Positions 18,894-39,730 of a DNA stretch of 64,000 bases are shown in pieces (position 1 is the stretch's first letter; every line of letters starts with the position of its first letter). The stretch lies in assembly GCF_009931435.1 (NCBI RefSeq), contig NZ_CP043414.1; one strand, given 5' to 3'. The stretch is from Escherichia coli (GTDB lineage: Bacteria; Pseudomonadota; Gammaproteobacteria; Enterobacterales; Enterobacteriaceae). The translations under genes were made by a program, and so were the position numbers. The notes beneath the pieces are model-generated. The model saw nothing but the letters and a program-made list of their open reading frames with translations. It was not told the DNA's origin and made no database searches.

Positions 18894-19223
18894 ATGGAAA
18901 CTACCAAGCCTTCATTCCAGGACGTACTGGAATTTGTTCGTCTGTTCCGTCGTAAGAACAAACTGCAACGTGAAATTCAGGACGTTGAGAAAAAGATCCG
19001 TGACAACCAGAAGCGCGTCCTGTTGCTGGACAACCTGAGCGATTACATCAAGCCCGGGATGAGCGTTGAAGCAATCCAGGGCATCATCGCCAGCATGAAA
19101 GGTGACTATGAAGATCGCGTTGACGATTACATCATCAAAAATGCCGAGCTCTCCAAAGAACGCCGCGATATCTCCAAAAAGCTGAAAGCTATGGGCGAAA
19201 TGAAAAACGGCGAAGCGAAGTAA
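18894..19223 (+). CDS. yeeX: UPF0265 protein YeeX
   Basis: 109 aa from [14 protein letters not shown] start; good spacing from upstream RBS. Confidence 0.85.
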
Positions 19224-19323
19224 TTCCTGTTTTATTCAATGAGGGTTGCCCGGCAACCCTCATTGCTCATTGATTCTTATCTGTGTATCACCGTCATCAT
19301 TCTCATCTGAGAACCTATCGAAA

Positions 19324-19749
19324 TTAGCAACAGCCTTCTTCTGTATGCAGCAAGGCAAAAAGTTCTGTAACTCCATTGTTATTAACCGCACTGGTTACTA
19401 ACACGTTGTGCGCTCCAGCTTCCCGTAACCAACATTTCACCAAAGATATGTGTTCCATGCTGGCTAAATCTGCTTTGGTTACTACTCCAATGACCGGGTG
19501 ATTCATGGCCCGGTAGGGCGTTTTTACCTCTAATTCCTGCCTCAGCGCTGAGATTCCTGCTTGTTGCCGGAAAAGCATATAGATTTGCATAAGTATGCTC
19601 TTTCGTATAGCCAGAATGTGTCGGATTCTGGTTGAACAGATAACGTGCCCGTTGACTTCTTTCGGAAGTGAGATTGTCATATCTGACATACATGGTCGCC
19701 CCTGTTTGCCAAGTCCCCGTGTCAAAAAGTCATCTGTGTAAGATTCCAA
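19324..19749 (-). pseudogene. EutP/PduV-family GTPase C-terminal remnant (possibly yoeF-like); N-terminal P-loop half missing
   Basis: C-terminal half (VIGVVTKADLA...NVLVTSAVNNNGVTELFALL) resembles EutP/PduV; upstream part of ORF lacks P-loop. Confidence 0.4.
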
Positions 19750-19900
19750 TCATACATATGGACTCAGATTGGCCTGTGTCCGTGCTTCCTAAAGGAATTC
19801 ACAGATTTAGTCCTAATCATGATGACACATTAGCGAAGCTATGCCATGAACCGCCCCGGAAATCCTGGAGACTAAACTTCCTGAGAAAGAGGTAAACAGG

Positions 19901-20227
19901 ATGACTAAAAATACTCGTTTTTCCCCCGAAGTCCGTCAACGGGCAGTCCGTATGGTTCTGGAAAGTCAGAGCGAATATGACTCACAATGGGCGACAATTT
20001 GTTCCATTGCTCCAAAGATTGGCTGTACGCCGGAGACTCTGCGTGTCTGGGTTCGCCAGCATGAGCGGGATACCGGGGGCGGTGATGGAGGGCTCACCAC
20101 CGCTGAACGTCAGCGTCTGAAAGAGCTGGAACGTGAAAATCGTGAACTGCGCCGCAGTAACGATATCCTTCGCCAGGCTTCCGCTTATTTTGCGAAGGCG
20201 GAGTTCGACCGCCTCTGGAAAAAATGA
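19901..20227 (+). CDS. IS3-family transposase OrfA (HTH)
   Basis: 108 aa [21 protein letters not shown]...; A-rich slippery stretch (GGAAAAAATGA) at the orfA/orfB overlap. Confidence 0.85.
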
Positions 20228-20641
20228 TGCCACTGCTGGATAAGCTGCGTGAGCAGTACGGGGTCAGACCGGTATGCAGCGAACTGCATATTGCCCCGTC
20301 AACGTATTACCATTGTCAGCAACAGCGACATCATCCGGATAAACGCAGTGCCCGTGCGCAGCACGATGACTGGCTGAAGAAAGAGATACAGCGCGTATAC
20401 GATGAAAATCACCAGGTATACGGTGTGCGTAAAGTCTGGCGTCAGTTGTTACGGGAAGGTATCAGAGTGGCCAGATGCACTGTGGCACGTCTCATGGCGG
20501 TTATGGGACTTGCCGGTGTTCTCCGGGGTAAAAAGGTCCGTACGACCATCAGCCGGAAAGCCGTTGCCGCAGGCGACCGCGTAAACCGTCAGTTCGTGGC
20601 AGAACGACCTGACCAGCTGTGGGTGGCTGATTTTACTTACG
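20224..20641 (+). CDS. IS3-family transposase OrfB, 5' exon (upstream of intron)
   Basis: Reading frame matches IS3-family OrfB up to ...[10 protein letters not shown], then diverges at intron 5' end. Confidence 0.8.
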
Positions 20642-21297
20642 GTGTGCCCGGAGTTCAGGGCGGGCATGGATGCTTAAATGAACCGCGAGTCTGTCTGGAA
20701 TATTGAACCGGTAACTCACGATGAGAAACCCAACAATCCCACCGGGTGTGACGGTGGAGAACCTGAGCGGCAGTGACCTGCGGCATGCCCGCAGGGTGAT
20801 GTAACCCGCTGACAACGGGGATTGAGGCGAGATCACTAAGCCGAGATGATCCTCAAGGTTAAGTACTGAAAGGCTGAAGAACATGAACCCGTTAATCCGC
20901 CTCTGTGGGTTGAAAACGTCACCACGGCCTACGTGATCTGACAGGCCGTGCAGGAGGAACTGGCAGTGATACGTAAGCACTGCCGGTCGAAGGTGTTTTG
21001 ACATGTATGCGAAACACCGGGGCAGCAGCGTCTATCACGCTTGCGTTGCTGACTTCTGCCAACTTGCGGCAAGCAAGGATAAAGAGTGCGACGGGCAGCC
21101 TCCTCAGTATGCCTGAGTCCAGGCAGGTAAACCGGGGAAGGTCAGCGACGGATGTTAAGGGGGCATGGCTCCGATGACGCGCTGGCTGGCGGAGCTTCCG
21201 TAGTAGTCCGCGATGGGGAAAGCCCATTACATGGCGAAGGGAAGCAGTTTGAATGTGTTTGCGACGTGAATTAACTGACCTAACGAGGTGAAGACCT

Positions 21298-22821
21298 TTG
21301 ATAATCAGCGAAATGCAACGCAAGCTTGCCACATGGGCAGTCACCGATCCGTCCCTACGGATTCAACGGCTGCTGCGTCTGATAACACAACCAGAATGGC
21401 TGGCTGAAGCGGCGCGGATCACGCTTTCATCAAAGGGGGCCCATACCCCCGGCGTTGATGGCGTGAACAAAACAATGCTACAGGCCAGACTGGCTGTTGA
21501 GCTGCAAATCCTCAGGGATGAATTACTCTCAGGCCACTACCAGCCCTTGCCCGCCAGACGGGTTTACATCCCTAAAAGCAACGACAAACTGCGACCACTG
21601 GGTATCCCCGCGTTGCGGGATCGTATTGTTCAGCGGGCCATGCTGATGGCGATGGAGCCGATATGGGAGAGTGATTTTCATACGCTCTCATATGGCTTCC
21701 GGCCTGAGCGCAGTGTCCACCACGCTATCCGCACGGTGAAATTACAGCTCACAGACTGTGGTGAAACCCGGGGACGCTGGGTGATTGAAGGCGACCTGTC
21801 CAGTTACTTCGACACCGTACATCATCGACTGCTGATGAAGGCTGTACGCCGCAGGATCAGTGACGCACGTTTCATGACTCTGCTGTGGAAAACCATCAAG
21901 GCGGGACATATCGATGTCGGTCTCTTTCGGGCGGCCAGTGAAGGTGTGCCACAGGGCGGTGTTATATCGCCGCTATTATCGAACATCATGCTGAATGAGT
22001 TCGATCAATACCTGCATGAGCGCTACCTGAGCGGGAAAGCCAGAAAAGATCGGTGGTACTGGAATAACAGTATCCAACGGGGCCGAAGTACGGCGGTCAG
22101 AGAAAACTGGCAGTGGAAACCCGCGGTGGCGTACTGCCGCTATGCCGATGATTTTGTCCTCATCGTCAAAGGCACCAAAGCACAGGCGGAAGCCATCAGG
22201 GAGGAGTGTCGGGGTGTGCTCGAAGGCAGTCTGAAACTCAGGCTGAACATGGATAAGACTAAAATCACCCATGTTAATGACGGCTTTATCTTTCTGGGGC
22301 ACAGGATCATTCGCAAACGCAGTCGTTATGGCGAGATGCGAGTGGTCTCAACGATCCCGCAGGAGAAAGCCAGAAACTTCGCCGCATCGCTGACAGCACT
22401 GTTATCAGGCAACTACAGTGAAAGCAAAGTCGATATGGCTGAACAACTCAACCGAAAACTGAAAGGCTGGGCCATGTTCTATCAGTTCGTTGATTTTAAG
22501 GCCAAAGTCTTCAGTTATATCGACCGTGTCGTGTTCTGGAAGCTGGCTCACTGGCTGGCCCGCAAATACCGTACAGGTATCGCTTCCCTGATGAGGTGGT
22601 GGTGTAAATCACCGAAACCGGGTCAGAGCAAAACGTGGGTTTTATTTGGTAAAACCAATCACGGCAAGCTCAGCGGCGAAATACTGTACCGGTTGGTGGG
22701 GCAAGGCAAGAAGCTGTTCCGCTGGCGGCTACCCGAAGGTAATCCCTATCTGAGGACGGAGACCAGAAACACGTATACATCGCGCTTTACAGAAGTGGCA
22801 ATGGCGTTCGCCAGCATTTAA
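21298..22821 (+). CDS. Group II intron-encoded reverse transcriptase/maturase
   Basis: 507 aa; RT motifs (…RRVYIPK…LRPLGIP…, YADDFVL) followed by maturase X-like domain; located inside the intron. Confidence 0.85.
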   Translation: MIISEMQRKLATWAVTDPSLRIQRLLRLITQPEWLAEAARITLSSKGAHTPGVDGVNKTMLQARLAVELQILRDELLSGHYQPLPARRVYIPKSNDKLRPLGIPALRDRIVQRAMLMAMEPIWESDFHTLSYGFRPERSVHHAIRTVKLQLTDCGETRGRWVIEGDLSSYFDTVHHRLLMKAVRRRISDARFMTLLWKTIKAGHIDVGLFRAASEGVPQGGVISPLLSNIMLNEFDQYLHERYLSGKARKDRWYWNNSIQRGRSTAVRENWQWKPAVAYCRYADDFVLIVKGTKAQAEAIREECRGVLEGSLKLRLNMDKTKITHVNDGFIFLGHRIIRKRSRYGEMRVVSTIPQEKARNFAASLTALLSGNYSESKVDMAEQLNRKLKGWAMFYQFVDFKAKVFSYIDRVVFWKLAHWLARKYRTGIASLMRWWCKSPKPGQSKTWVLFGKTNHGKLSGEILYRLVGQGKKLFRWRLPEGNPYLRTETRNTYTSRFTEVAMAFASI

Positions 22822-22826
22822 ATGGA

Positions 22827-22860
22827 GAGCCGGATGCGCTGAAAGGTGCACGTCCGGTTC
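22827..22860 (+). ncRNA. Group II intron domain V (catalytic hairpin)
   Basis: GAGCCGGATGCGCTGAAAGGTGCACGTCCGGTTC: 34-nt hairpin with AGC triad and GAAA tetraloop, followed by domain VI with bulged A about 7 nt from the 3' splice site. Confidence 0.7.
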
Positions 22861-22883
22861 GGGGAGGAGAGGCAGGGAAATAG

Positions 22884-23384
<501 letters not shown>

Positions 23385-23542
23385 GTTCACAGATAAAACA
23401 CTCTCCAGGAAACCCGGGGCGGTTCACCATGTCAGATACAGGTTCACTTAGTCGCGGTCTTATCAGTCTGGCCTTTAATACTTGTTTATCCTTAGCAATC
23501 AGTAGGTTGGTTTTATTTTTCAACAGACAGAAGTAGTTTCAT

Positions 23543-24330
23543 TTACATATATGCAGCTACCATCACTTCTTCTGGTGAAATCTCTTTATCGTTGGTTAGC
23601 AATACCCAGAGCACTCTGGCATTTTTGTTGTTCAGCGCTACGGTGGCAACATTTTTATTCCGCCGCGAGACTGGTCTGCCCAGCCAACTTTCCTGGACCT
23701 GTCTGCCCTTTCTGGCGTTTGACACTGTCTTCGCACCATGGAACAGTAGCGTTCTGATATAGACATCGTCCCGTTTACTGATAGACCCCAGCGTGTTTTT
23801 ACCTACGCTGAAGCACTGTCGGGGAACCAGTCCAAGCCATGCAGCAAGCTGACGCCGGTTTTTGAAGCCGATACTACCCGGTGCTGACAATTGCAGTGGT
23901 GGTAAGAATAGCAATCCCCGAAATGGTGGCAATTTTCCTACACAGTTCGTCGTTCCCGACGTGTTCGTTGCTCACGGCTTCTATGGTTTCAATGTGTACG
24001 CTCAGTTGTTTCACATTTTCATTAGAGATAGGACGACAGCTGTCTGAACGGTATTGTTAAACAGTTTTCCGCGTCTTCAGGCAGGGCAGGGACATGACGA
24101 CTGAATGCTACAATGTCGGGCGGGAAAACGATGCCAAATTCAGCCAGTAATTCTCTGATCTGGTTTATCTGCGCAGCCCTTGATTTAACAAATCCCGTTT
24201 GGGCACGATGAAAAGACAGTAATGACTACTGCTCAGGCGTCTTGATGCTGACAAACTGCATATTAGGTCGGGTAACGGCTTCACAGATGGCCTCGGCAGC
24301 AGCCATATCATTCTTGTTTGTTTTCACATA
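23543..24330 (-). pseudogene. IS110-family transposase remnant (5'-truncated, internal stop)
   Basis: C-terminal domain FKNRRQLAAWLGLVPRQ…LGSISKRDDVYIRTLL typical of IS110/IS902 family; upstream frame contains stop and lacks N-terminal DEDD start. Confidence 0.6.
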
Positions 24331-24855
24331 TGGCTTTACAAATCGCGGGCATTAGTCTGACATTATGCCCCTAAGTAGACAGCATTCTCACTAATGACGC
24401 GCTCCGGCGCAGACCTCCATCCCAATCCGACAGGAAGACATATTCGCGAAGAATACGGGCATCAGGGAACGTTTAATCCGTTTTCTGAGCTTAGATTTTT
24501 CTGTTCCTACCCAGACCGTGGATTTGGAATTCATTTTTTGTCAGGTCAATGCTAATCGTTAAAACGGCCATAACGCACCTCCACTGGAAGGTTTATCAGT
24601 AATATCCTACCGTTGCTTCATGGTAGGGGCGTCCATTCCATTATTATCGGTTTTCCTTTCTGTTTATAAATGAAAACGCCAGCTGTATTCAGGCTGGCGT
24701 CAGGGGAAATGAAGCCTGTTGAGTGAGATTCACCGGTTCTGGTGCAGAAGCTGCAGATGGCGCAGGGTAAGGACATCTTCTCTTGCCTGCTTAATACAGG
24801 ACAACAGTGCTGTTTCTGTGGTTAATGGCACTATACCCTGTATCACTGCATTGTC

Positions 24856-25059
24856 TTACAGCAACTGGTGAGGGCTGGCATAAGTTGCCGGTGTTTCGGT
24901 AGAGTCACGTTCATCCACCACGCGGAGTGAATCACCGTTTTCAGCGACCTTGTTAATCAGTTCAGCGAGATTAACACCATCGACGTCAACGACAATGCGC
25001 CCCATGTTCAGCGCCTGCACGTTAACGCTGTCGGCTTCCAGCGTCAGGGCCAGTTTCAT
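24856..25059 (-). CDS. yeeW: YeeW-like small protein downstream of cbtA
   Basis: 67 aa ORF overlapping cbtA stop by 4 bp; conserved position in CP4-type islands. Confidence 0.6.
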   Translation of the reverse strand: MKLALTLEADSVNVQALNMGRIVVDVDGVNLAELINKVAENGDSLRVVDERDSTETPATYASPHQLL

Positions 25060-25433
25060 CGTTTCGCCTCCGGATGCTTCCCCAGGGTAATGTTATTTAC
25101 CGTTCTGTAATTGTCGCGGGTCATCAGGCCTGTTGCCCGGCGAGCCCGGAGGATATCAATACTGTTTATTAACTGAGAGCGGGGACAAGTGCTGAATCCC
25201 GGCTGGTCGGTACGCACCAGCGCGTATTTTTCCACGAGAAAATTCACCGCATCACACAGTGAAATGCCAGCTTCAATATGCTGCTCAATCACACGTTCAT
25301 CGGCGAACGGTGTGTCATTCAGTGTAAGGCCGTAATGCTGGCCCAGTAGTCGGGAGAGCAGAGTCTGCCAGATGGTGACGGGGGACGGGCAGCTCGATGC
25401 CTCCCGTACGTGTGTATCGGGTAATGTTTTCAT
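25056..25433 (-). CDS. cbtA: Cytoskeleton-binding toxin CbtA (YeeV)
   Basis: 125 aa; CbtA/YkfI/YpjF family sequence; immediately downstream of cbeA. Confidence 0.85.
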   Translation of the reverse strand: MKTLPDTHVREASSCPSPVTIWQTLLSRLLGQHYGLTLNDTPFADERVIEQHIEAGISLCDAVNFLVEKYALVRTDQPGFSTCPRSQLINSIDILRARRATGLMTRDNYRTVNNITLGKHPEAKR

Positions 25434-25522
25434 ACTGAAGGTTTTCCTGATATGCAGAGATGAAAAATGGAAAAGTGGCGTGGTGAAAGCACCAGGCCGG
25501 AGCAGAAGGTTATTCCGGTGGT

Positions 25523-25891
25523 TTACTTTTTCGTTTCGGGCGTCGGATAAACAGCCAGATAAACGTAACCACCGCTACCGAGGGTGTCAGCTTTGCAGGT
25601 CAGACCTTTCGCATACAGCGTGACGGTATGCTGATGGCGGGGATTCAGTTCACCGCTGGTGAGCATGAGTTCCAGTTGTTTCATCAGCAGCGGAAAGGCC
25701 TGGTCCAGGTGGTACGCATCTGCATCGCTGAACAGGCCTCTGATACCGGCGCGGTCGGCAAGGTAATGCAGGCGGTTACCCTCCTGCACCAGACGTGCCC
25801 CGAAACAGGGCGTCACGGTGCAGGGCAGCCCCCACCAGGGGCGGTCGTGATTGTCGTCGGGAAGCATTGTCCCGGAGAGTGCGTCTGACAC
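25523..25891 (-). CDS. cbeA: Antitoxin CbeA (YeeU)
   Basis: 122 aa; YeeU/YafW/YfjZ family. Confidence 0.85.
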   Translation of the reverse strand: MSDALSGTMLPDDNHDRPWWGLPCTVTPCFGARLVQEGNRLHYLADRAGIRGLFSDADAYHLDQAFPLLMKQLELMLTSGELNPRHQHTVTLYAKGLTCKADTLGSGGYVYLAVYPTPETKK

Positions 25892-26053
25892 GATAAAATC
25901 CTCACAGAAAATCGGTTAAGAATGGTTTAACGATGACAGGTCAGCCGGCGCGCAGACCGCCTTCGGTAAAGGTGTATTCGTTTATGAGCAGGGCCTCATC
26001 CACAGCGGCGTCTGAGCTCAGCCAGTCGTACTCGTTTTCCGGGTGACGGAACA

Positions 26054-26275
26054 TCAGTTCAGGGTGACGCTCATCAGCCGGACATACGGGCCAAAACTGT
26101 CCTTACGGCGTTCTGCAAACACGGCCAGCACACCGGGAATATCCTGCACTTCACGACCGGTATACGCTTCAGTGCCACCGTGCCAGCGGTATTTGCCGGT
26201 ACAGAACGGAAAAAGACGGGATGTCGGATGTTGTTGGTGAATTCGCATGGCTTCACCACGGGTGATGATTTTCAT
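26054..26275 (-). CDS. yeeT: DUF987 protein YeeT
   Basis: 73 aa ORF in conserved position between yeeS and cbeA. Confidence 0.8.
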   Translation of the reverse strand: MKIITRGEAMRIHQQHPTSRLFPFCTGKYRWHGGTEAYTGREVQDIPGVLAVFAERRKDSFGPYVRLMSVTLN

Positions 26276-26337
26276 AGTGTGATGCCTCTGAAGACGGAAG
26301 ATAAAAGTGAAAACAGGTGTGATGTGGTTGTGACGGG

Positions 26338-26829
26338 TTAAAGCAGACCATGTTCGGCAAAGGAGAAAACCTGGCTGCCACCGACTATCAGATGGTCCGG
26401 CACCCGGATATCCACCAGGCCCAGTGCCTGTACCAGACGTTCCGTGATAAGGCGGTCTGCCTTGCTGGGTGTGACTTCACCGGACGGGTGATTGTGTGCC
26501 AGCACCACAGCAGCGGCATTGTGATACAGGGCGCGTTTAATCACTTCCCGGGGATGGACTTCCGTGCGGTTGATGGTGCCGGTGAAGAGGGTTTCACCGG
26601 CAATCAGCTGATTCTGGTTATTCAGATACAGCACCCGGAATTCTTCACGCTCCAGTCCCGCCATGTTCAGAATCAGCCATTCCCGTGCCGCACGGGTGGA
26701 GGTGAAGGCCACGCCGGGTTCATGAAGATGGCGGTCCAGGGTTTTCAGGGCCCGTTGAATGAGGCTGCGCTCACCGGGTGTCATCTCTCCGGGCAGAAAG
26801 GAAAGCTGCTGCATTGTCCCTGCCTCCAT
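26338..26829 (-). CDS. yeeS: RadC-like JAB-domain protein YeeS
   Basis: JAMM-type motif region (…VVLAHNHPSGEVTPSKADRLIT…); alternative start MQQLSF at 26814. Confidence 0.8.
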   Translation of the reverse strand: MEAGTMQQLSFLPGEMTPGERSLIQRALKTLDRHLHEPGVAFTSTRAAREWLILNMAGLEREEFRVLYLNNQNQLIAGETLFTGTINRTEVHPREVIKRALYHNAAAVVLAHNHPSGEVTPSKADRLITERLVQALGLVDIRVPDHLIVGGSQVFSFAEHGLL

Positions 26830-27315
26830 TCAGTCGATGATGCGCATAATGGCGCTGCATTCCGGATGCTGCAGGGCGTAATCCCGCAGCCGGTAATAAT
26901 GGACCGTCATGGCATAACACTCCGTACGACAGGCATGATGACTGTACGTCATCAGACAGGCAGCAATGCCAGCGGCTTCCGGGCTCATTTCAGCGCGGTT
27001 GCCGTTCATGGCATTGAACAGTACCCATGTTTCGTCATCATCGTCATCCGGTTCGGGTGCCATAAATGCCCCGCCGTTGTTCAGAGTGTACAGATTCCAG
27101 ATACCACCGCAGTAGTCTTCGCACAGACGGTCCATCCAGCCGAAAACACGGGGCTCCAGGGTCACCCACTGTGGAATGAGGCCAAAATGCTGCGGCCAGA
27201 AGCTGATGCGCTGTTCATCAGGGACTATGGTGGCAACCAGCTGAGGCTGGTCATTCCCTGATGCAGCGGTTACGGAAACAGAAGATGTGGTGGAATTATG
27301 TGAAATGGTTTTCAT
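26830..27315 (-). CDS. Antirestriction protein (ArdB/KlcA-like; YfjX/YafX family)
   Basis: 161 aa with acidic DDDDDETW stretch and family-typical C-terminal region; position upstream of radC-like gene. Confidence 0.75.
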   Translation of the reverse strand: MKTISHNSTTSSVSVTAASGNDQPQLVATIVPDEQRISFWPQHFGLIPQWVTLEPRVFGWMDRLCEDYCGGIWNLYTLNNGGAFMAPEPDDDDDETWVLFNAMNGNRAEMSPEAAGIAACLMTYSHHACRTECYAMTVHYYRLRDYALQHPECSAIMRIID

Positions 27316-27369
27316 GAAATGACTCCTTAAAGGACAAATAAATGCGTGGTTTTCAGGGTAATGGCTGAA

Positions 27370-28188
27370 TCAGCGCAGGCTCTCCAGCAGGGTTTCCGCC
27401 ATCACCCACAATGCGCGGTTGAGCTTAATGTCAGTGTCAATGCTGTGAATGGCACGGGTATGGATACGTTTTCCTTTAGCGCTGCGACCTGAAATTCCGC
27501 CTTTCAGCATATTCTCCTGAATGGTCTGATAAGCACTCCACAGGTCCTTACCGTAATCCTCCCGGCGTCGTGGCGTCAGAATGTCGGCGGTGGTGACGGG
27601 CTGATGTTCGTCACCATAACGGTAAGTCAGTGCCGCCTGTGCCAGCGCCTGGCGTGCCGGTGGCGGCAGAATCAGCGACTGCATGGCATCACGCTTTTCC
27701 TCAATCCGGTCAAAAACCCCCACCACCTCGTAAGCCCCTTCAATGACTCTGTCCACCACATTTCCCCGGTGCGGAACACGCACTTCCCCCAGAGACTGAC
27801 CACAGACGCATCCGTTCTGGCAGACGAACCTGAAGTAACCCGGCAGCATCTGGTAGCTGGAGGTACCGTCATGAGAGTTGAGCAGAATAATTTCAGGGAC
27901 ATGTTCTCCGTTTATCTCTCCGGCCCGCCGCAGACGCAGCATGTGTTTTGTGTATCCCCGGCGGCCCGGGTCGCGCACACGGGTCTGGCAGGCGAAGAAT
28001 GGCTGAAAGCCTTCCCGCTGCAGGCTTTCCAGTACGGTGATGGTGGGGATGTACGTATAGTTCTGGCTTCGGGACGTGTGTTTATCTTCCCCGAAAATCC
28101 CCGGCACATAGTGCATCAGTTCTTCGTGTGTCAGCGGACGGTCACGGCGTATCTGGTTCGCATAACCAAAACGACTGGCTAGTCGCAT
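27370..28188 (-). CDS. DUF932 domain protein (YafZ/YfjQ-like)
   Basis: 272 aa ORF in conserved island position; family assignment from recalled sequence features. Confidence 0.7.
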   Translation of the reverse strand: MRLASRFGYANQIRRDRPLTHEELMHYVPGIFGEDKHTSRSQNYTYIPTITVLESLQREGFQPFFACQTRVRDPGRRGYTKHMLRLRRAGEINGEHVPEIILLNSHDGTSSYQMLPGYFRFVCQNGCVCGQSLGEVRVPHRGNVVDRVIEGAYEVVGVFDRIEEKRDAMQSLILPPPARQALAQAALTYRYGDEHQPVTTADILTPRRREDYGKDLWSAYQTIQENMLKGGISGRSAKGKRIHTRAIHSIDTDIKLNRALWVMAETLLESLR

Positions 28189-28287
28189 AATTTGCTCCTT
28201 ATCGGTGGTTAAGATTTACTGGTGTAATAAATGAAAAAGCCACGTCTCCCGGAGAAGACGCGGCCTGATGGGTGAAATGAATGACGT

Positions 28288-28521
28288 TTATTGTCTGAGA
28301 AGACCGTCACTGGCGAGCCGCGTATTAAGCACCTTTCCGGCATCGGGTTCAGAATTCCGGCAGCGCCAGCGTCGCTGACCTTCCGCGTTGCGGATAACCC
28401 GACGGAAATGCATTCCCGGATCATCCTGGATAAACACATTGCGGTAAGCGGTTATGACAGCAACCGCCTGCCCGTATGAGAAAGATCCTTCAGCCAGGAC
28501 ATACTCTGTGTAACCCGGCAT
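28288..28521 (-). CDS. Small hypothetical protein (77 aa), possibly DUF905-like
   Basis: ORF only; fits a gap between DUF932 gene and downstream exported protein; weak support. Confidence 0.3.
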
Positions 28522-28599
28522 ATCTGTTTTCTCCTGATAAATAAAAAGCCTCTGCCACGCGTTGTGACAGAGGCTGAAGCATGAAACTGACTTCAGGGA

Positions 28600-29055
28600 T
28601 CAGTTAACGTTTTTTCCGGAAACGGTAATCAGCAGTGGATGGTAGTCCTGGGGATTGAAAACCGATAACGGCAGACTGACACGATGGCCGTTACTTTCTT
28701 CAGTTGCTTTAATGATTTCGGTTGTGGCGACATTTTCCACGCACTCCGTTTCCAGAAATGCGTCTGTGGTTCGCGTGGCATTACTGTCACCAAAAGCTTC
28801 CGTTTCCATTTTTCTGGTCACCAGCGTCTGACCATATTTGTCTTTGAGTTGCAGAGTGATGGTGAGGGGGCCAAATCCTTCATCGTTTCCGCCATTATCC
28901 AGCCGGAACTGGTAAGCACAAATATTTCCCGGGAGCCATATCGTATCTGTATTGCGTATACTGATGTAACGTTGATCCTGTGCCCGGAGTGGGGCAGACC
29001 ACGTTAACCCCAGAATGAAGGCGGTAATCATGCAGGTTTTGAACAGGTGAATCAT
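28600..29055 (-). CDS. Hypothetical exported protein (signal peptide, 151 aa)
   Basis: N-terminal hydrophobic signal sequence ending LRA|QD; RBS-like GAGAGG upstream. Confidence 0.5.
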   Translation of the reverse strand: MIHLFKTCMITAFILGLTWSAPLRAQDQRYISIRNTDTIWLPGNICAYQFRLDNGGNDEGFGPLTITLQLKDKYGQTLVTRKMETEAFGDSNATRTTDAFLETECVENVATTEIIKATEESNGHRVSLPLSVFNPQDYHPLLITVSGKNVN

Positions 29056-29130
29056 GGTATTTACCTCTCTGAGTCATGACGATGACACTGACAAATCAGG
29101 TGATAAAGCGTAAAAGGCGCAGAATAGCCG

Positions 29131-31653
29131 TTATGCCGGTAACTCCGGGGGTAATGCTTCTTCCAGTCGGTTAACCATATTGCCGAGATGGGATGCATCA
29201 TATTCCATGACGGGGCGTTGCCTGATGATACTGACCACCAGTGGTTTGATTAACATATTGGTCGCGGCCCGTTGTTGTATACCGGCGGCGAAAATGATCT
29301 CCAGAGCATTCTGATCGATAACACGGGCCAGATTCTCGTTCAGATTTTCAATCTCATGTCCGGTCAGCAGGAAACTGCCGGCAAGCCATGTCACCTGCTC
29401 CTGAATCATTGCCAGAATTTTGACGCGATCTTCTTCAACCAGCGCTCCGGCAATTTTTCCTGATACAGCGGAGGCAATCATTCCCCCCAGAACACCGCCA
29501 ACCACACGCCCTGTCAGTGCACCAAATGGTCCCAGTGGACTGAACAGTATCCCGCCCGCCACTGACCCGACAGCTCCACCTGCCACACCGGAAGATGCCA
29601 CGGCAAGATTCCTGATGAACTGCGCACCGGAGATCCGTCCCCGCAACATTTTGATCATGTCAGGGCCGGTTGTGACAGCTACCAGTGCCAGAGATGTCAC
29701 CAGCGTACCCTTCATTACTTTGTTCAGGGCACTGATATTTCCTGCACCGGTCCCCTTCTGAAGAGCCAGTCGGACAGTCGGGCTGGCAGTCGAAAAATCA
29801 ATGTGCTTCAGCATACCCTGAACAACACTGAGCCGGTGGAGTTGCTGGGTTGTGACGTAGACAGCCAGTGTGCGGGTGAAGGTTTTTCCTGCCTGGACAG
29901 CAGCTGTCTGCAGGGCAGCATCGCGATCGCCGGTGCTGAGCCAGAAGACCGATGCCGTCAGGGCAAAACTGATCCCTCCGGCCGCCAGACTGACAACCGA
30001 ACCCTCGGCAATATCATAAGTGACCGATTCGATGGTCCCGAACCGGGTGATATTACGGGCCTGAGTATAAGTCAGATGTCCCCGACGAATCAGCCGGGAC
30101 GCTTCTGCGGGATCGGTTACACCGGGTACTTTACCTTCGCGGATCTTATTCCTCATGGTTTCAACAGCGCCGGCATACTGATCACGGGGGACTTCCAGTT
30201 GCATGGGGCCATTATTTCCCATGTAACGATACTGTCCGTTTTGTCCGTCGAATGCCGCACCGACGCTACGGGCTGCAGTTGAACAATATTTCGTCTGGAT
30301 TTCTGTTCCGCTGACCAGCCTGTCTGCTCCATTTCTGGCATTATTATCACCGAGGATCCGTGCGTTTTTCAGACGGACTCTGTCGACAATATGGTTTCCC
30401 CGTTCAGCGGCAAACCCATGTCCCTGCCCTCCGGAAGCAAACATTTTCTCATTTGTACTCCAGGTTTCCGGCAGTTTCATGAGAATCAGACCATTCGCCG
30501 TTGCATCGGAAATAAAGCTGTTGTAAGGGCGTTCATAAATTTCCTGACACAGTGTTTCTGTTTCGCGACAAAGAGAGGAGCAGTACCATTCCGGATCCGG
30601 CTTATGATTTTCCGGGGCATGATGTACTTCTGTCAGCCCGCAGGAGGCACAGATACGAAGCTCATCCACGTGATGGAATGATACAAAACGGCGACCTTCT
30701 GAAAAGGGATACCAGTCACCGCCGTCCAGGCAACGATCGAGAAAATCGTCATTTGCTTCCGGTGATAAATTCAGGCGGTTCCGGAAGAGCGTTTTCAGTT
30801 CATCAGGTGTGAATGACAGGTTCTCTTTCAACTGTTCGTTAAACCCTGCCATGTTTCTTTCATACCAGGCATTGTTCAGTAACCAGTTTCCGTCTGCCAG
30901 TTCAAATTCCCTCAGCTCTCCCCGGGAAATCCGTTGAGAAATGAGCGTCAGCCAGATGCGCTCCGTCAGTGAGTCAGGAAGGCTGTAATCGTTTTGCAAA
31001 CTGGTCAGCCACGATTTACTGTTGAGCACCGGTTGTTCTTCCAGTGTCTGGCTGATGGCACAGGTCAGTTTTTTCAGCGCCTGGATCTGGCTGGCCGCCC
31101 ATAGCAGCGTCACTAATGCAGCCAGCCAGTACAACAACCCGCCCCACCACATCAGTGACGGTGAAATATCGTACTGTAACGCGATCAATGGTGCGCATGC
31201 AGAACACGCCATAAGGAAAAAGGCAGTATAAAAACAGCAGTAATACCCGTTAATTTCCTTGCTGATATCTTCTGGTGTGATCCCGTTCTGCTGAATGTTT
31301 TTGATCTGCAGGGGAACAGCCAGCAGACCACCGGCGAGAGCGGTGGTCAGAATAAATTTCACAGAGTCAAAGGTGCGAGCCTCCAGCGCGATATGTTTAC
31401 CATCAAGTCCCCACATGAAGCTGATGATCATTCCGGCAATCGTCAGAAATACGCCTGCCAGCCAGCGAATATGGAACAACCGGGTTATGCGTTCGGTGAT
31501 ATAGCCAGCCAGTAAGGCCGGGCCGAACAGACACAGCAATATGAGCCCTGCCAGCGCAGAAGCCGTGCTGATTAATGCTCTGAACAAAAGGCGAAGAATG
31601 GCAAATCCTGCGATCAGCAGGATCAGCGCGCCGACTATCTGTAACATAGTCAC
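29131..31653 (-). CDS. yeeR: YeeR-like inner membrane protein (840 aa) with C-terminal glycine-zipper region
   Basis: Multiple N-terminal TM segments; C-terminal G/A-rich zipper-like segments; located between flu and the antirestriction/DUF932 cluster. Confidence 0.65.
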   Translation of the reverse strand: MTMLQIVGALILLIAGFAILRLLFRALISTASALAGLILLCLFGPALLAGYITERITRLFHIRWLAGVFLTIAGMIISFMWGLDGKHIALEARTFDSVKFILTTALAGGLLAVPLQIKNIQQNGITPEDISKEINGYYCCFYTAFFLMACSACAPLIALQYDISPSLMWWGGLLYWLAALVTLLWAASQIQALKKLTCAISQTLEEQPVLNSKSWLTSLQNDYSLPDSLTERIWLTLISQRISRGELREFELADGNWLLNNAWYERNMAGFNEQLKENLSFTPDELKTLFRNRLNLSPEANDDFLDRCLDGGDWYPFSEGRRFVSFHHVDELRICASCGLTEVHHAPENHKPDPEWYCSSLCRETETLCQEIYERPYNSFISDATANGLILMKLPETWSTNEKMFASGGQGHGFAAERGNHIVDRVRLKNARILGDNNARNGADRLVSGTEIQTKYCSTAARSVGAAFDGQNGQYRYMGNNGPMQLEVPRDQYAGAVETMRNKIREGKVPGVTDPAEASRLIRRGHLTYTQARNITRFGTIESVTYDIAEGSVVSLAAGGISFALTASVFWLSTGDRDAALQTAAVQAGKTFTRTLAVYVTTQQLHRLSVVQGMLKHIDFSTASPTVRLALQKGTGAGNISALNKVMKGTLVTSLALVAVTTGPDMIKMLRGRISGAQFIRNLAVASSGVAGGAVGSVAGGILFSPLGPFGALTGRVVGGVLGGMIASAVSGKIAGALVEEDRVKILAMIQEQVTWLAGSFLLTGHEIENLNENLARVIDQNALEIIFAAGIQQRAATNMLIKPLVVSIIRQRPVMEYDASHLGNMVNRLEEALPPELPA

Positions 31654-31767
31654 TCCGTGATGAATATCATGTTATTGTTAATGCCAGCGAATGTGGCGTT
31701 GAAGATCCGTTGCGCCGGTCCGGGTCCCGGTCATGATGACCGGGACCACAGAGAGGCGATGGTTCTG

Positions 31768-34700
31768 TCAGAAGGTCACATTCAGTGTGGCCTGACCGTT
31801 ATACCCTTCAGCGCTGCTGCCGCTGACGCTGTGGGCATAACCGGCCTGAACGCCCAGGGTGATATTTTCCCGGACACGGGCTTCCAGTCCGGCCTGCAGG
31901 TCCAGTGATGTGCCATTCTGTGAGGGAGAGAACGTCATCCCGCTGCCTGCAGTGGAAGTCCCCACACGCATATCTCCCCGGGAGCTGAAGGTGCGGATAA
32001 CAGAAGGCTGTACCCACCAGTTCACCGGTAATTCACTCACACTGTGTTTTGCACTGTCACGCAGGGGGGCACGGGATGAGGTGCCTTCGCCAAAGGTCAT
32101 ATCGTTGTGGCTGCCCAGACGGAAACCGGCACGCACATGTTGTGCACTGCCATGCCCGAACTTCACATAACCGGCGTTGTCCTTACCGTCATCCAGGGAA
32201 AGTCCCTGCCAGGTATACTGCAGTTGTGGCTCCAGCATCAGGTTGTCAGTGATACTGAAGGGCAGACCGGTTTCCAGTGAGCCCAGCCAGCCCCAGCCCC
32301 GGGCGCGGAAGTCGTTATTGTCCGATGACGCTTTCATGCTGTGGCGGGTTCCCTGTGCCACAATGTCAGCCCACAGGCCGGAGGACGTGTGTGTCAGATT
32401 CAGGTATCCGCCCAGGCTGCCGGCATCATCCCGGACCGTGCCGGCACGGGAGCCGTCATCATCCTTAACATCAACGGAAGAATGGCCAGCAGCACCATAT
32501 ACCCCCGCGGTCACAGACATACCGGCAACCTCTGTTCTCATCAGGTCACCCTCCAGACGGACGAATCCATAGCTGCCGCTGCTTTCCGGCGTGGCCCCAC
32601 GGGCAATACCGCCATTGTTATCGTGACCGAGATGACCGCCCTGAATGCTGAGACGGACGCTGTTGTTTTCACCATTTACACCGGTCTGATGGCTGCGGGA
32701 GCCTGCCACAATCCGGTCATAGTCCATTGCCTGTGTCAGCATGGAGGCATACAGGGGGACTTCTGCACGATAAGCATTTTCACTGCGCAGATACCAGCTC
32801 TCACCACTGTCCCGGTTGAGGGAGTAGTTAAAGGCACCGGCCTGCAGCCTGTTCCCCTGGACAAAGGCCCCTTCCTCCGTGGTGGCACCGTTAATGGCTT
32901 CCACCACCTGAATACCCTTACCGCTGGTCGCCAGCCCCGACGCACTGTTGCCGGCGTTCACCAGGTTCAGGATGGTTTTTCCGGTTGCCCTGCCGCCGTC
33001 AATGACCAGTCTGTCAGCATTGTTCTGTGCCATATCCGGGCGTACACGCAGGCTGATGGTGCCATTCTGTCCGTTCAGGTTTTTCACTTTCAGGGTTGCC
33101 GGTACGAACTTCCCTGTGCGGGTGGAGGTGAAATGAATCTGTCCGGCATGGCTGAGGTCATCCACCACCGACTGCACCGTGGCGTTATCGGGGATATTCC
33201 AGGTGGCACCGGAGGCGAGAGTGACATTCGTGGGGTCAATGGCACCGTTCAGCACAGTGCTGCCGGTCAGCTTCAGGGCTGTACCGCGCTGAGCAATGAC
33301 ATCCGTGGTGACGGTACTGTCGTTCAGCGTCAGCGTGCCTTCATTCAGGTTGACGGCTTTCTGGGTGAGTGTGGTGTTGCTGACAGTGAGTGTGCCACTT
33401 CCTGATTTTTCCACGCTGCCGTTACCGGTGAGAGAGCCTCCCTGCAGGAGTGCATCGCCTTCACGGATGGTCAGGGTATCGTTGTTCACCGTCTTCCCGG
33501 AAAGGGTAAGTATGGCGCCGTTATTCAGCGTGGTGGTGCCCGCCAGTGTGCCGCCCCTGGCGGTGAACAGTCCGCCATTTACCGTGGTATCCGTGGCCGT
33601 ATCACCGGCGTTCAGCGTGAATGAACTGCCTTTTTCCAGCATCAGGGCATCCGCCTGACCGCCTCCGATACTGAATGCCTTTCCGTCGCTCCGGGTACCA
33701 CTGACAGCGGCACCGGAATCGGCCAGCAGTACACCGCCATTTCCCATGGATACGGTGGTGGCGGTACCACCGTTGCGGACATCCAGCGTTCCGCCATCAT
33801 CCACGCGGGTATTAGTGGCTGTGTGTCCGGTCAGCACATCCAGGCGTCCGCCATTTTCCAGTACGACATTATCAGCTTTACCCTCCACAACCGAGAATGC
33901 TCCAAGGCGGTTTATGCCGGTAACGGTTGCAGCCGTACTGGTAACCAGTGCGCCGCCCTGCTTCAGGGTGACATTCGTGGCTGTACCACCGGCGTCCACC
34001 TGCAGTCTGCCCTTCTGATTAACGGTGGTATTCCCGGCCACACCCCCGTTTTTGACAATCTGCCAGCCGTCACTGTTCACAACAGTGTCAGACGCTGTAC
34101 CGCCGTTGTGCACATACTGGTATCCCCCATTCAGCGTGGTATCCAGTGCGTGACCATGTACAGTCTGGTCGCCGCCGGCATAAACCACAGTGGTATTTGC
34201 CGTTCCTTCAGTTCTCACAATCTGGCGACCGTTTTTATTGATGGTTGTGCGTACGGCATCCCCGCGAACAAACTGCCCGGTATCACCGTTTTCTGCATCC
34301 GGTCCCCCTTCCGCCCCGGTATTAACAACGGTATCCGTTGCCACTGTACCGGGCTTGACGACCTGCCAGCCCTTATCATTAATGACGGTTCCTGTGGCTA
34401 TCGCCCCCTCATGCATCCACTGTTCGCCACCATTCAGCGTGGTGTTCACTGCCCGTCCCTGAAGGCTCTGTCCGCCTCCGGCACTGATAACCGTGTCTGA
34501 GACACTTCCACCGGGGTTCACTCTCTGAAGACCACCACTGGTGACAGTCGTTTTGTTGGCTGTTCCGCCATCCTGTACCCATTGCCCGCCGGTATTGGCC
34601 TCGTTATCCGGCCCATACTCCAGCCCGGTACTGATGGTCATTCCGTTGGTCGTACCGAAGACAATCTGGTTGTCATGATTTTCCAGTGTTCCGCCGTTCA

Positions 34701-34887
34701 CGGTTTCACCTGCCTGTACAATACTGTCAGCAGCCAGGGCCGGGACTGACGTGACAGCAGCAAGAGACAGAGCAACCGCCACACCGGCGCCTTTTCCCCG
34801 TGAGCGGGCCAGTTCGGAGGCCACCACCAGGGTGCCCGTAATGTGATTCCATACCAGCCTGTAGCTGGTGTTCAGATGTCGTTTCAT
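31768..34887 (-). CDS. flu: Antigen 43 autotransporter adhesin (self-associating autotransporter)
   Basis: 1039 aa from MKRHLNTSYRLVWNHITGTLVVASELA extended signal peptide; repetitive beta-helix passenger; C-terminal beta-barrel ending …ATLNVTF. Confidence 0.9.
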   Translation of the reverse strand: MKRHLNTSYRLVWNHITGTLVVASELARSRGKGAGVAVALSLAAVTSVPALAADSIVQAGETVNGGTLENHDNQIVFGTTNGMTISTGLEYGPDNEANTGGQWVQDGGTANKTTVTSGGLQRVNPGGSVSDTVISAGGGQSLQGRAVNTTLNGGEQWMHEGAIATGTVINDKGWQVVKPGTVATDTVVNTGAEGGPDAENGDTGQFVRGDAVRTTINKNGRQIVRTEGTANTTVVYAGGDQTVHGHALDTTLNGGYQYVHNGGTASDTVVNSDGWQIVKNGGVAGNTTVNQKGRLQVDAGGTATNVTLKQGGALVTSTAATVTGINRLGAFSVVEGKADNVVLENGGRLDVLTGHTATNTRVDDGGTLDVRNGGTATTVSMGNGGVLLADSGAAVSGTRSDGKAFSIGGGQADALMLEKGSSFTLNAGDTATDTTVNGGLFTARGGTLAGTTTLNNGAILTLSGKTVNNDTLTIREGDALLQGGSLTGNGSVEKSGSGTLTVSNTTLTQKAVNLNEGTLTLNDSTVTTDVIAQRGTALKLTGSTVLNGAIDPTNVTLASGATWNIPDNATVQSVVDDLSHAGQIHFTSTRTGKFVPATLKVKNLNGQNGTISLRVRPDMAQNNADRLVIDGGRATGKTILNLVNAGNSASGLATSGKGIQVVEAINGATTEEGAFVQGNRLQAGAFNYSLNRDSGESWYLRSENAYRAEVPLYASMLTQAMDYDRIVAGSRSHQTGVNGENNSVRLSIQGGHLGHDNNGGIARGATPESSGSYGFVRLEGDLMRTEVAGMSVTAGVYGAAGHSSVDVKDDDGSRAGTVRDDAGSLGGYLNLTHTSSGLWADIVAQGTRHSMKASSDNNDFRARGWGWLGSLETGLPFSITDNLMLEPQLQYTWQGLSLDDGKDNAGYVKFGHGSAQHVRAGFRLGSHNDMTFGEGTSSRAPLRDSAKHSVSELPVNWWVQPSVIRTFSSRGDMRVGTSTAGSGMTFSPSQNGTSLDLQAGLEARVRENITLGVQAGYAHSVSGSSAEGYNGQATLNVTF

Positions 34888-35069
34888 CAGCTTTTCCTTA
34901 GATTGAGGGTGAATAAAAAAGCCGGTACCCACAAACGTGGATACCGGCAGGTAAAGGGTTACAGTGCCGGAGGTCCGGCTGTGGGAGTTTCTGAATTGTG
35001 GTTCTGTTGTTCCCTGAATGTCTTTCTGTACGTATCTGTGCATGTTACTGACAAAGGTTATTATTAGCT

Positions 35070-35112
35070 TATCGATCGATATAAACGATCGATAAAATAG
35101 ATATCGATCGTT
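35070..35112 (-). promoter_or_regulatory. agn43 (flu) phase-variation switch: OxyR-binding region with three Dam GATC sites
   Basis: GATC at 35074-35077, 35087-35090 and 35106-35109 within 36 bp in the flu 5' region. Confidence 0.7.
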
Positions 35113-35214
35113 TTATTCTATTATTGAGCTATTGCACGGACAAGAGAGACAGTAACGAAAACAGTGCTTTTGTGAGCAGACTCAGAGTCAGGGAGGGCAT
35201 CAGTCACGACAGGT

Positions 35215-36126
35215 TCAGAAGAAAATCCAGTTCCATACCGCACGGGCAACAGAGACCACCGTGTCACGAACAGCGCGCAGGGCCGTACGGACAACAGAGG
35301 CAACACAGACGCTCTCCGCTGTGTCAAATATCCGGTCCACCGCACCGGTAAACTGTTCACGGGCCTGAGAGCGGACAGATTCCGTGCGCAGCTCGTCCTG
35401 CAGTCGGGTCATCAGGGGACTGGCGGCATGGTCGGGAAGCGCTGTCATGAGCGCACTGACCAGCGTATCCAGTTCCCAGCCGGTGCGGGCCGATACGGCC
35501 ACAACCGGATGTACGGGCCGGAACAGACGGAATACCGCCTCCGTTTTTTCGCGAATATTCTGTGCCTGTGCAGGAGAAGGCTGAATACCGGCCATATCCC
35601 ATTCATGGCAGGGCTCCGTTTTGTCGGCCTGCGTCACCACAAACAGTACCCGCTGATGTCCCCGGTGCAGGATGTGTCGCCAGAAATACTCATCCACAGA
35701 CAGGGCACGGTCATCGGCTTTAATCAGCCACAGTACCAGGTCAAGTTCAGGCAGAATGTCACGGTACAGGGCCTCATACTCTGCATCCCTGTCCCGGCTC
35801 TCGCCCACCCCGGGCAGGTCAGTGATAACCATGCTGTGACCGTGGCCACTCAGACGGAAGCGCCGTACTTCCCGGGTGCCGGCGTGAACATCACTGACCG
35901 GGGTGACCTCCCCCTGAAACAGTGCATTACAGAGTGAGGATTTACCGGCCCCGCTTTTACCCATAATGCCAATCACGGGTTCGTGACGGGTGAGTTTGCG
36001 CAGATGTTCCAGGATGTGACGGGAAAGCGAGTAAGGCAGGGAGGAGAGCGGTTTTTCAATTGCCTCAATGGCATCAGACGGATTCATACATGTATTCCCG
36101 GTGAAAAAAGACAAAACCCCGCGCAC
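35215..36126 (-). CDS. yeeP: YeeP-family GTPase (P-loop; YkfA/YfjP-like)
   Basis: P-loop GIMGKSGAGKSS and DxxG (DLPGVGE); probable start at MNPSDAIEAIEK (36087). Confidence 0.75.
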   Translation of the reverse strand: MRGVLSFFTGNTCMNPSDAIEAIEKPLSSLPYSLSRHILEHLRKLTRHEPVIGIMGKSGAGKSSLCNALFQGEVTPVSDVHAGTREVRRFRLSGHGHSMVITDLPGVGESRDRDAEYEALYRDILPELDLVLWLIKADDRALSVDEYFWRHILHRGHQRVLFVVTQADKTEPCHEWDMAGIQPSPAQAQNIREKTEAVFRLFRPVHPVVAVSARTGWELDTLVSALMTALPDHAASPLMTRLQDELRTESVRSQAREQFTGAVDRIFDTAESVCVASVVRTALRAVRDTVVSVARAVWNWIFF

Positions 36127-37315
36127 CGGAAAGGTGGCGGGGGATTCACGGAGATAATATCTGTCTGAAATTGTTTTTAATCGATGGGATTGTTGCGTAT
36201 TAACATGAAGGAGATCAGGACTTATCCGTTACTGGGTGATCTCCTTCCATGAAAATACGCCGTTATTGTTAAACAGCAGGCTGATTTCTCCGTAAAGGGG
36301 AAAATATTTATCGGCTGCATGATTATCAGGTGTGTCTGTGTTTACTGCTGTGAGTATTTTTCAGTGTATTGTGGGGGAGATGTCAGTGGGAGATATTAAA
36401 TTTACATTTATAATTATCTTACTTCTTCTGTGTGTTTTTTATAAGAGTGCACACGTAATGATATCTGTTGATACCATGTGGTTAAGTGTTTCCCTTCCTG
36501 GTCATGCGTAATGATTAAATGCTTTTGTGACACCATTCTTCCGGTCTGAATATTTATCCCGTTCTTTTTTATTTGTGCAGTGATACTGTCGGAAGAGAAT
36601 TCAGTAATGTGAGGTGTCCTGGTCAGGATAATATCTGCTGAGATATTATTAGTTGAGTGTGTTTTTACTGAGCAAAAGCTGGCTTTTAATTCCTGTACTG
36701 AAACGCTGTTGCTCGTCCGGGGTTAACTGAAACTGGATGATGATGTAAAATGAAGGCTGTTTTTGTGTTTGTCGAAGAAGTGTTATTTTAATCCATTCTC
36801 ATCATTGGCTGGCGATTATACAGAAGTATTTGAAGAAAAAATGGTGCATTTTATCTGCGTCAGCAGGGAGGAAGTATTTTATTGATGTATCAGTATTAAA
36901 TGGTTTTTGTTATTTAGAAATATGTCATCCTGTCCATAGAATATTGTACTCAGCATTCAGTGCAGGAACTGTAGTCTTCTTTATTTTATTCTTCTTCAGG
37001 AGGGGGGATTCCTGAAGGCGTTATTCCCGGTGTTCTGTTTATGATTCATCCCGGCAGGAAACCGGTATCTGCAATACCCGGGATGATGCTTTTTGTTCGT
37101 ACGTGGTTGTGTAAAATTTGAATAGTGGATGTGCTCTGAAGGGAAGGAGGGGACACACAGATTCATTTTGTCTTTCTTCAGCAGCAAAACACACTGTGGT
37201 TATTATTTAACCATTAAATCAACAAAAATTTTTACCTCATATTGATTTGACTGCTATTTTTGCTATTAATAGCCAGAATTGCAGTACTTTTATATCTGTG
37301 TGTAGTGAGGTTACT

Positions 37316-38800: not shown

Positions 38801-39121
38801 CCGGTGAGCAGTTTTTCTCCATTATGCTTCAGACTTAGATGATTGATTATTATGGGGATTTCATCACCGATATTCAGATGTATGAATATCGGTGATGAAC
38901 TAAAGCTCAGGAGTTGCGTGGTGGTGATGAATCAACAGGCATATAACTGATACCCGCCGGTCAGAAGTTCCAGCCTGCGACTTTCCTGTCTGCGTGCCCG
39001 CAGTCCGGCGTTCAGGTGCAGCGTGTGACAGAACGCACGGAGAGCGAAACGGCAGGCAGACAGGCTGTTCAGTCAGCCCTGGCACCCTGCCCGGATACCA
39101 GCTTCCCTGAAACAACTGGCA

Positions 39122-39730
39122 TCAGGTGCGCTTATCGTCAACCGTTGTGCGGTATGCCAGGAGCACGTACTGATCCATCAGATCCGTCAGTGCTGCGCTC
39201 TGCTTCTGACGGTTGATGATCCATTCCTCCAGCTCTTTTTCTGATTTCCGTTTCAGATTCTCCGTCCAGTCGTCAAGGCAGTTTCCGGTCATTAAATCAA
39301 GCCAGCAAAGCCAGACCAGTTTGAGGCGCAACTCCGTGCCACCAAACTGACGGAAGAGGCTGATCAGTTTATTTGCCAGCGAACGCTGCCTCAGACGTTC
39401 ACATTCAGACAGGAGAATGCCTTCCAGCATCGGATGATGAACCAGCAGATGTTCACTGGTGCATAAATTCACTATCAGATCATCATCCAGGGGCGGCGTG
39501 GTCCGTTTGTCCGGACCATAAATCAGCCGGTGCAGACTCTGGGGTACGATGGCAATCTCCGGTTTTTCACCATTGAATGACACCCACCCGGGCGTCAGAT
39601 TATGGAAGTAGTAGATATTCGGATGACACACGCCCCAGGATACGGCGTGCCGGGTGAAGCCGGTCAGCCATTTCTGGTAGCTTTCGTGGAGCAGCTCGTA
39701 ACGGGTCTGATACTGTGGTTTCATTTTCAT
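39122..39730 (-). CDS. Hypothetical protein (about 202 aa) downstream of alpA-like gene
   Basis: ORF with GAGGA RBS before MKMKPQYQTRYELLHE start; no confident family assignment. Confidence 0.5.
   Translation of the reverse strand: MKMKPQYQTRYELLHESYQKWLTGFTRHAVSWGVCHPNIYYFHNLTPGWVSFNGEKPEIAIVPQSLHRLIYGPDKRTTPPLDDDLIVNLCTSEHLLVHHPMLEGILLSECERLRQRSLANKLISLFRQFGGTELRLKLVWLCWLDLMTGNCLDDWTENLKRKSEKELEEWIINRQKQSAALTDLMDQYVLLAYRTTVDDKRT

Follow-up and report, generated by a model that had tools for sequence, protein, structure and literature searches.

The closest intact counterpart of the feature analyzed here is PduV, a protein of 143-150 aa that carries a P-loop (GPSQCGKT) and a DTPG motif and is encoded behind pduT-pduU in the 21-gene pdu operon. 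PduV of Salmonella is directed to the compartment by its N-terminal region. Lawrence and Roth (Genetics 1996) reportedly proposed that cob and pdu were lost in the ancestor of E. coli and Salmonella, and were then reacquired in Salmonella. Papers on propanediol use by E. coli describe pdu as an accessory operon, and in some cases as a horizontally acquired one, and the literature ties propanediol use to adherent-invasive and Crohn's-associated strains. Among mobile DNA, the closest counterparts are the DUF4942-family genes, about 280 codons in full, which are the last genes of CP4-type islands (CP4-6, CP4-44 and CP4-57 relatives) and follow DUF5983 (yeeW) and DUF957. Finally, E. coli K-12 has a catalogued pseudogene, yoeF (b4538), which a recent y-ome survey of uncharacterized K-12 genes places within the CP4-44 prophage region; our literature search found yoeF in gene lists, and no paper treating it as a pdu relic.

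The locus described here lies in a window of 64,000 nucleotides, by which we mean the whole stretch of DNA that was analyzed (E. coli assembly GCF_009931435.1, contig NZ_CP043414.1). Its gene order is his - yeeZ/Y - plaP - tsuAB - sbcB - dacD - sbmC - yeeA - yeeX (tmaR), followed by an island and then by cobU-cobS-cobT-ldtA-nac. Strain 504239 (NZ_CP025859), whose RefSeq annotation was used, is 100% identical to the window over the queried 1.2-kb stretch. At the yeeX side of the island lies an ORF that a first-pass annotation, made from the letters alone, had placed at the boundary between island and backbone; indeed, the junction falls inside the ORF, at 19502-19507. We consider it very likely that the feature consists of the last 60 codons of pduV, now non-functional, left in their original place beside yeeX/tmaR after the pdu operon had been lost to an island and a deletion. 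The remnant is yoeF of K-12, the name that some RefSeq records also give it: the idea of a pdu relic was correct, and the feature itself had already been catalogued. K-12 yoeF occupies the same locus: it converges on the adjacent yeeX/tmaR and borders a CP4-44-type island. It has the same RefSeq product name, the same pduV breakpoint and the same adjoining 71 bp of DUF4942 sequence, and its 183-nt pduV segment is 97.8% identical. Beyond these 71 bp, K-12 continues into a transposase fragment and has a callable ORF of 60 aa, whereas the window keeps the DUF4942 5' end back to its ATG and has an ORF of 121 aa (141 aa from the TTG). The positions of all features are collected in Table 1.

Table 1. 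Features at the two edges of the island, in window coordinates.
Feature	Position	Strand	Description and basis
yeeX/tmaR (DUF496)	18894..19223	+	Backbone gene, convergent with pduV; RefSeq annotation of strain 504239
Perfect 13-bp stem hairpin	19237..19265		In the ~100 bp that separate the stop codons of yeeX and pduV; RNA fold z-score -3.2
ORF under study	19749..19324	minus	141 aa, TTG start
pduV 3' remnant, codons 88-147 and stop	19324..19506	-	Pfam/TIGR matches; DNA and protein alignments
Junction microhomology ATGAA, 5 nt	19502..19506	-	Three-way DNA alignment
First 61 codons of a DUF4942-family gene, in frame with the pduV remnant	19507..19689	-	BLASTP, blastn
ORF 5' extension, aa 1-20, end of a degenerate IS110-family element	19690..19749	-	IS110 element inserted directly upstream of the DUF4942 ATG
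CP4-44-type island in place of the pdu operon	19507..47876	-	28.4 kb, unmatched in LF4-1 blastn; RefSeq annotation
cbiG-like ORF relic, 3' 47 codons, upstream of cobU (48173-48718)	47877..48021	+	PGAP pseudogene 'cobalamin biosynthesis protein, missing N-terminus'

The resemblance of the C-terminal half of the ORF to the EutP/PduV family, on which the first-pass annotation was built, was borne out by profile searches, with matches confined to the C-terminal part. Pfam PF10662 (PduV-EutP) matched with E=4.7e-12 and 46.4 bits (gathering score 21), the alignment covering only ORF aa 80-135 and profile positions 86-142 of 143, and TIGR02528 matched the same stretch with E=3.2e-10 and 40.4 bits, a score below its full-length cut-off of 138.35. 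The family match of the ORF is far beyond chance. A protein search returned the full-length 147-aa E. coli PduV proteins P0037 (1,513 member sequences) and P0038, to whose C-terminus the last 60 aa of the ORF are near-identical; these 60 residues are colinear with those of the operon-borne PduV, and their gene has the same orientation and the same neighbor, yeeX. The remnant protein runs MNHPVIGVVTKADLA...EEGCC (coding part 19506-19327), and the 183 bases of the remnant share 95.6-96.7% identity with the 3' ends of intact pduV genes in pdu-positive E. coli. Together with the flanking yeeX region, the remnant is 98.5% identical over 593 bp to a further pdu-positive strain (L005). In comparison with intact pduV, codons 1-87 are missing, and the annotation of strain 504239 has no BMC-domain (microcompartment) genes in the window neighborhood of the remnant. 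The P-loop half had been called absent, and codons 1-87 are indeed without counterpart in the ORF; in intact PduV they encode GPSQCGKT at residues 8-15 (G1 P-loop) and DTPG at 42-45 (G3). Both family motifs, G1 (GxxxxGKT) and G3 (DTPG), are missing from the ORF, and the sole GTPase motif retained is the G4-like (T/N)KxD, present as TKAD at ORF aa 91-94. D94 is invariant in 9/9 aligned rows and TK(A/V)D is found in every PduV-derived row. We class the remnant as a pseudogene fragment of the family rather than as a functional EutP/PduV member.

While the loss of the P-loop half held up, the region that stands in its place is foreign DNA rather than degraded pduV. We read the 141-aa ORF as a three-part chimera, in which aa 1-20 come from the end of an IS110-family element, aa 21-81 from codons 1-61 of a DUF4942 gene and aa 82-141 from codons 88-147 of pduV. 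BLASTP matched ORF aa 21-84 to the extreme N-terminal end of a DUF4942 protein of 280 aa, with 60% identity over 67 aa (E=1e-18), and in blastn a DUF4942 record (L039, 3001-3201) aligned to window 19690-19499. When the DNA next to the pduV breakpoint, which is single-copy in E. coli, was compared with a plasmid collection, it matched the first 200 bp of DUF4942-family genes at 75-77%. Pfam and NCBIfam scans gave no match in the N-terminal 80 aa of the ORF; the DUF4942 domain goes undetected because only 61 codons remain. The DUF4942 start codon, ATG, lies at 19689-19687, and PGAP uses it in strain 504239 to call an inner version of the ORF with 121 aa (WP_001282181.1, 19324-19689 on the minus strand), labeled as an intact "EutP/PduV family microcompartment system protein". 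By our comparisons, this 'intact' protein would be a chimera of two unrelated gene pieces. PGAP is inconsistent here, in that the 121-aa DUF4942'-'PduV chimera is called intact and shorter versions in other strains are called pseudogenes.

Upstream of the DUF4942 start, the degenerate IS110-family element comprises about 1.37 kb in two pieces, 19691-19848 and 23427-24642, with a fragment of its C-terminal domain at 23543-23932. Between them, at 19849-23426, an IS3-family element with a group II intron has inserted; in strains without the IS3 insertion, 19691-19848 is contiguous with 23427 onward. The usual DUF957-DUF4942 intergenic sequence picks up again at window 24643, and once the IS insertions are taken out, the order DUF957-DUF4942 is restored in the window. 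By this reading, the ORF would keep the N-terminus of a terminal island gene in the same place after DUF957 as in other CP4-type islands. The intron encodes the reverse transcriptase/maturase ltrA (21298-22821), so that mobile elements are nested three deep.

The join itself was resolved by a three-way DNA alignment in which the window was set against two DUF4942 genes and against pduV of LF4-1. Homology to DUF4942 extends to 19499 and homology to pduV starts from 19506, and the DUF4942-pduV join is in frame. The sequence ATGAA is common to the DUF4942 gene (..GCCATGAAACAG..) and pduV (..TCAATGAATCGC..); the window tracks DUF4942 up to ..GGGCCATGAA and then pduV from ATGAATC.. onward. This microhomology was deduced from DUF4942 paralogues that are about 77% identical, and not from the true parent copy. 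We also considered the junction sequence as a 3' non-coding tail of the IS110/IS1111 type, possibly with a guide RNA, inserted in pduV; this candidate was rejected, as Rfam gave nothing and the DUF4942 match identifies coding island DNA.

For the synteny comparison, pdu-positive genomes provide the reference arrangement. The complete genome of E. coli LF4-1, a deer isolate, reads yeeA-tmaR, then pduV-U-T-S-Q-P-O-N-M-L-K-J-H-G-E-D-C-B-A, then pduF-pocR-cobalamin riboswitch-145-aa ORF-cobU-cobS-cobT. The gene for P0037 closes a complete pdu operon and converges on the DUF496 (yeeX) gene at a distance of about 100 bp. In E. albertii, pduV likewise lies about 100 bp from convergent yeeX, which is followed by yeeA-sbmC-dacD-sbcB...hisL-hisG, and a scan of species-representative genomes found the same layout in E. 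coli E69 and E. whittamii. The position of the remnant is exactly that of the intact 147-aa pduV in E. albertii, E. whittamii and pdu-positive E. coli. The Escherichia pdu operons examined all end at pduV, about 100 bp from yeeX, without pduW or pduX. In about 20 genomes of Citrobacter, Pseudocitrobacter and relatives, pduV is followed after about 2.2 kb by yeeX-yeeA-sbmC-dacD; in C. braakii, these 2.2 kb hold PduW, of the acetate kinase family, and PduX, a GHMP kinase (L019, 6438-8611). As yeeX/tmaR is the same neighbor of pduV in pdu-positive Escherichia and in Citrobacter, the shared layout argues that the adjacency of pdu and yeeX is old, and that Escherichia differs from Citrobacter only by the missing pduW and pduX. 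The species-representative scan used peptide patterns specific to Escherichia PduV, and the genomes that it returned did not include Salmonella, where pdu presumably lies at the same site as in Citrobacter.

To delimit the replaced segment, LF4-1 was aligned to the window with blastn, which gave two collinear blocks: LF4-1 1197-20707 corresponds to window 1-19506, and 38242-40707 to window 47877-50333. Between the breakpoints 19506/19507 and 47876/47877, 17,534 bp of LF4-1 are exchanged for 28,370 bp, and backbone homology to the pdu-positive strains LF4-1 (L007), L005 and L006 stops exactly at 19506. Relative to LF4-1, the window has lost pduV codons 1-87, pduU through pduA, pduF, pocR and the riboswitch, as well as the 5' portion of the 145-aa cbiG-like ORF. 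The full ORF of LF4-1 resembles the N-terminal domain of CbiG and matches NF004463 (cobalt-precorrin-5A hydrolase) with E=1.6e-19. Since the pduV remnant lies at one edge and the cbiG-like relic at the other, both edges of the island adjoin relics of the cob-pdu region; and the deletion of the riboswitch, along with the 5' portion of the cbiG-like ORF, has left cobUST without the B12 riboswitch upstream of it. The island carries GTPase-family and YfjI genes, the Ag43 adhesin gene, irmA, DUF932, an antirestriction gene, yeeS, yeeT, cbeA/cbtA and many IS fragments. Its cobU-side boundary adjoins a fragment of the IS4 family, and IS-mediated events may have shaped this boundary. Asn tRNA genes are common integration sites of islands. 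The window has a tRNA-Asn gene at about 51602-51677, between ldtA and nac, roughly 3.7 kb from the cobU-side edge and not adjoining the island.

We determined how widespread these alleles are in 5,426 complete E. coli genomes. The 3' piece of pduV was present in 5,411 of them (99.7%), as a rule once per genome, while pduT-U-V was intact in 645 (~12%) and the segment pocR-riboswitch-cbiG-like-cobU in 644. The junction-proximal 71 bp of DUF4942 sequence were found in 4,180 genomes (~77%) and the full 342-bp version, as in the window, in 651. A breakpoint equivalent to window 47877 on the cobU side is common to a large class that makes up the majority of E. coli and includes K-12 and B derivatives. 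A different, island-free allele, in which the cbiG-like ORF is fused directly to pduV codons 50-147, occurs in 187 of the 5,426 genomes (e.g. E. coli strain 1943, L041 2165-2799), and at least one further loss allele has cobU beside a pduV fragment. In addition, a paper on O-antigen switching lists, for some strains of Shiga-toxin-producing E. coli (STEC), cobU directly after yoeF. The existence of several distinct loss alleles indicates that pdu was lost several times in E. coli, by independent deletions. The window carries the commonest of these alleles, which is probably also the oldest. The 5' end of the ORF varies among strains, with products of 60, 102, 121 or 141 aa, or IS-truncated forms.

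While piece identities, breakpoints, synteny and population distribution could be read directly from the genomes, the order of events that we infer, and the mechanism of joining, are a reconstruction. The E. coli ancestor would have had the order cobTSU - cbiG-like - riboswitch - pocR - pduF - pduA...pduV - yeeX. In the simplest history, a CP4-44-type island would have arrived on the side of cobU in the lineage leading to this strain and K-12, oriented so that DUF4942 faced pocR-pdu. A single deletion of 17.5 kb, from DUF4942 codon 62 to pduV codon 87, would then have removed the right end of the island, and with it the remainder of the DUF4942 gene, together with the riboswitch, pocR, pduF, pduA-U and the 5' part of pduV. 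Joining of the ends at the ATGAA microhomology, with the frame kept by chance, would have given the chimeric DUF4942'-'pduV ORF. Later, an IS110-family element would have inserted upstream of the ATG, followed by insertion of an IS3 element with a group II intron inside the IS110 element. Among the matches listed, no intermediate genome with the island beside an intact pdu operon was seen; considering this, and the IS4-family fragment at the cobU-side edge, a multi-step, IS-assisted history is equally possible.

An origin of the pduV piece as cargo of the CP4-44 prophage-like island, brought in together with it, would agree with the y-ome assignment of yoeF to the CP4-44 prophage region, and the ORF is physically continuous with the island, from which its N-terminal part is derived. 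However, homology with pdu-positive chromosomes is unbroken from yeeX through the spacer into pduV, up to 19506, and the stub is found at the same place in genomes that are free of the island. Moreover, where CP4-type islands occupy other loci, their last gene is a complete DUF4942 gene and pduV sequence is lacking, and the stub occurs once per genome though E. coli has several CP4-type islands. These comparisons place the pduV-derived part of yoeF outside the island, on the backbone, rather than among the prophage cargo, and we regard import with the island as highly improbable. Together with the intact pduV at the same position in pdu-positive genomes, they agree with the original, openly speculative suggestion that the fragment is a relic of an ancestral pdu locus by the cob genes. 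More improbable still, to the point of being nearly negligible, is a derivation from a duplicated eutP of the ethanolamine operon, or from some microcompartment locus other than pdu. EutP and PduV are not distinguished by Pfam and NCBIfam models, and some database entries name relatives 'ethanolamine utilization protein', but the stub DNA has its 95.6-96.7% identity to the 3' end of the gene that follows pduT-pduU in E. coli pdu operons, and a distant blastn search returned no second eutP-like place at 65% identity or more.

Another possibility is that selection has kept the locus, either because the in-frame DUF4942'-'PduV fusion is expressed as a small protein with an acquired function, or because the stub DNA and its hairpin serve 3'-end formation or provide a terminator context for yeeX/tmaR. 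If true, selection would explain why independent pdu deletions all end inside pduV and why the stub is kept in nearly all genomes. The frame is still open both in this strain and in K-12, the fusion kept the frame and the native DUF4942 start codon, and a conserved hairpin lies between both stop codons. The product, on the other hand, has neither the G1 nor the G3 motif, which are needed for nucleotide binding; its 5' end is highly variable from strain to strain, and IS elements have truncated it in some; and the native ribosome-binding region has been replaced by IS110-family sequence. A simple promoter and terminator scan of 19150-19950 found no promoter-like site and called no terminator. 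Near-universal retention is also what is expected from inheritance of one old junction, present in 77% of genomes, and the 183-bp stub has too few substitutions to show constraint: a Nei-Gojobori comparison with intact copies, in a set that leaves out E69 and E. whittamii, whose alignments were out of register, counted only 4-10 differences in each pair, from which no dN/dS signal could be drawn. We consider a selected function very unlikely. Considering that the G1 P-loop, the G3 motif and the N-terminal targeting region are all missing, the remnant product very probably lacks function. Near the stub, only the hairpin, CAATGAGGGTTGC-CCG-GCAACCCTCATTG, has a plausible role; it is conserved among pdu-positive E. 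coli and for the most part also in E. albertii, and the terminator scan did not call it because it lacks a T-run.

Read as a pdu remnant left in place, the feature is a molecular fossil of a pdu operon that would have lain between cobU and yeeX in the E. coli ancestor. In most E. coli, one old loss event would have put a CP4-44-type island in its place, and in other lineages separate deletions removed it. The near-universal presence of an in-situ stub argues that at this locus the presence of pdu is ancestral and its absence derived, which bears on the debate about loss and reacquisition of cob/pdu, although the stub alone does not settle it. By the same argument, the ~12% of strains that are propanediol-capable would have the ancestral arrangement at this site rather than a foreign insertion. 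In pdu-positive E. coli (LF4-1, L007 37583-38413), pocR, pduF and the cobalamin riboswitch are kept and there is no cbiA-P between the riboswitch and cobU, so propanediol would be used only with imported corrinoids; in LF4-1, the 145-aa cbiG-like ORF stands alone in this interval.
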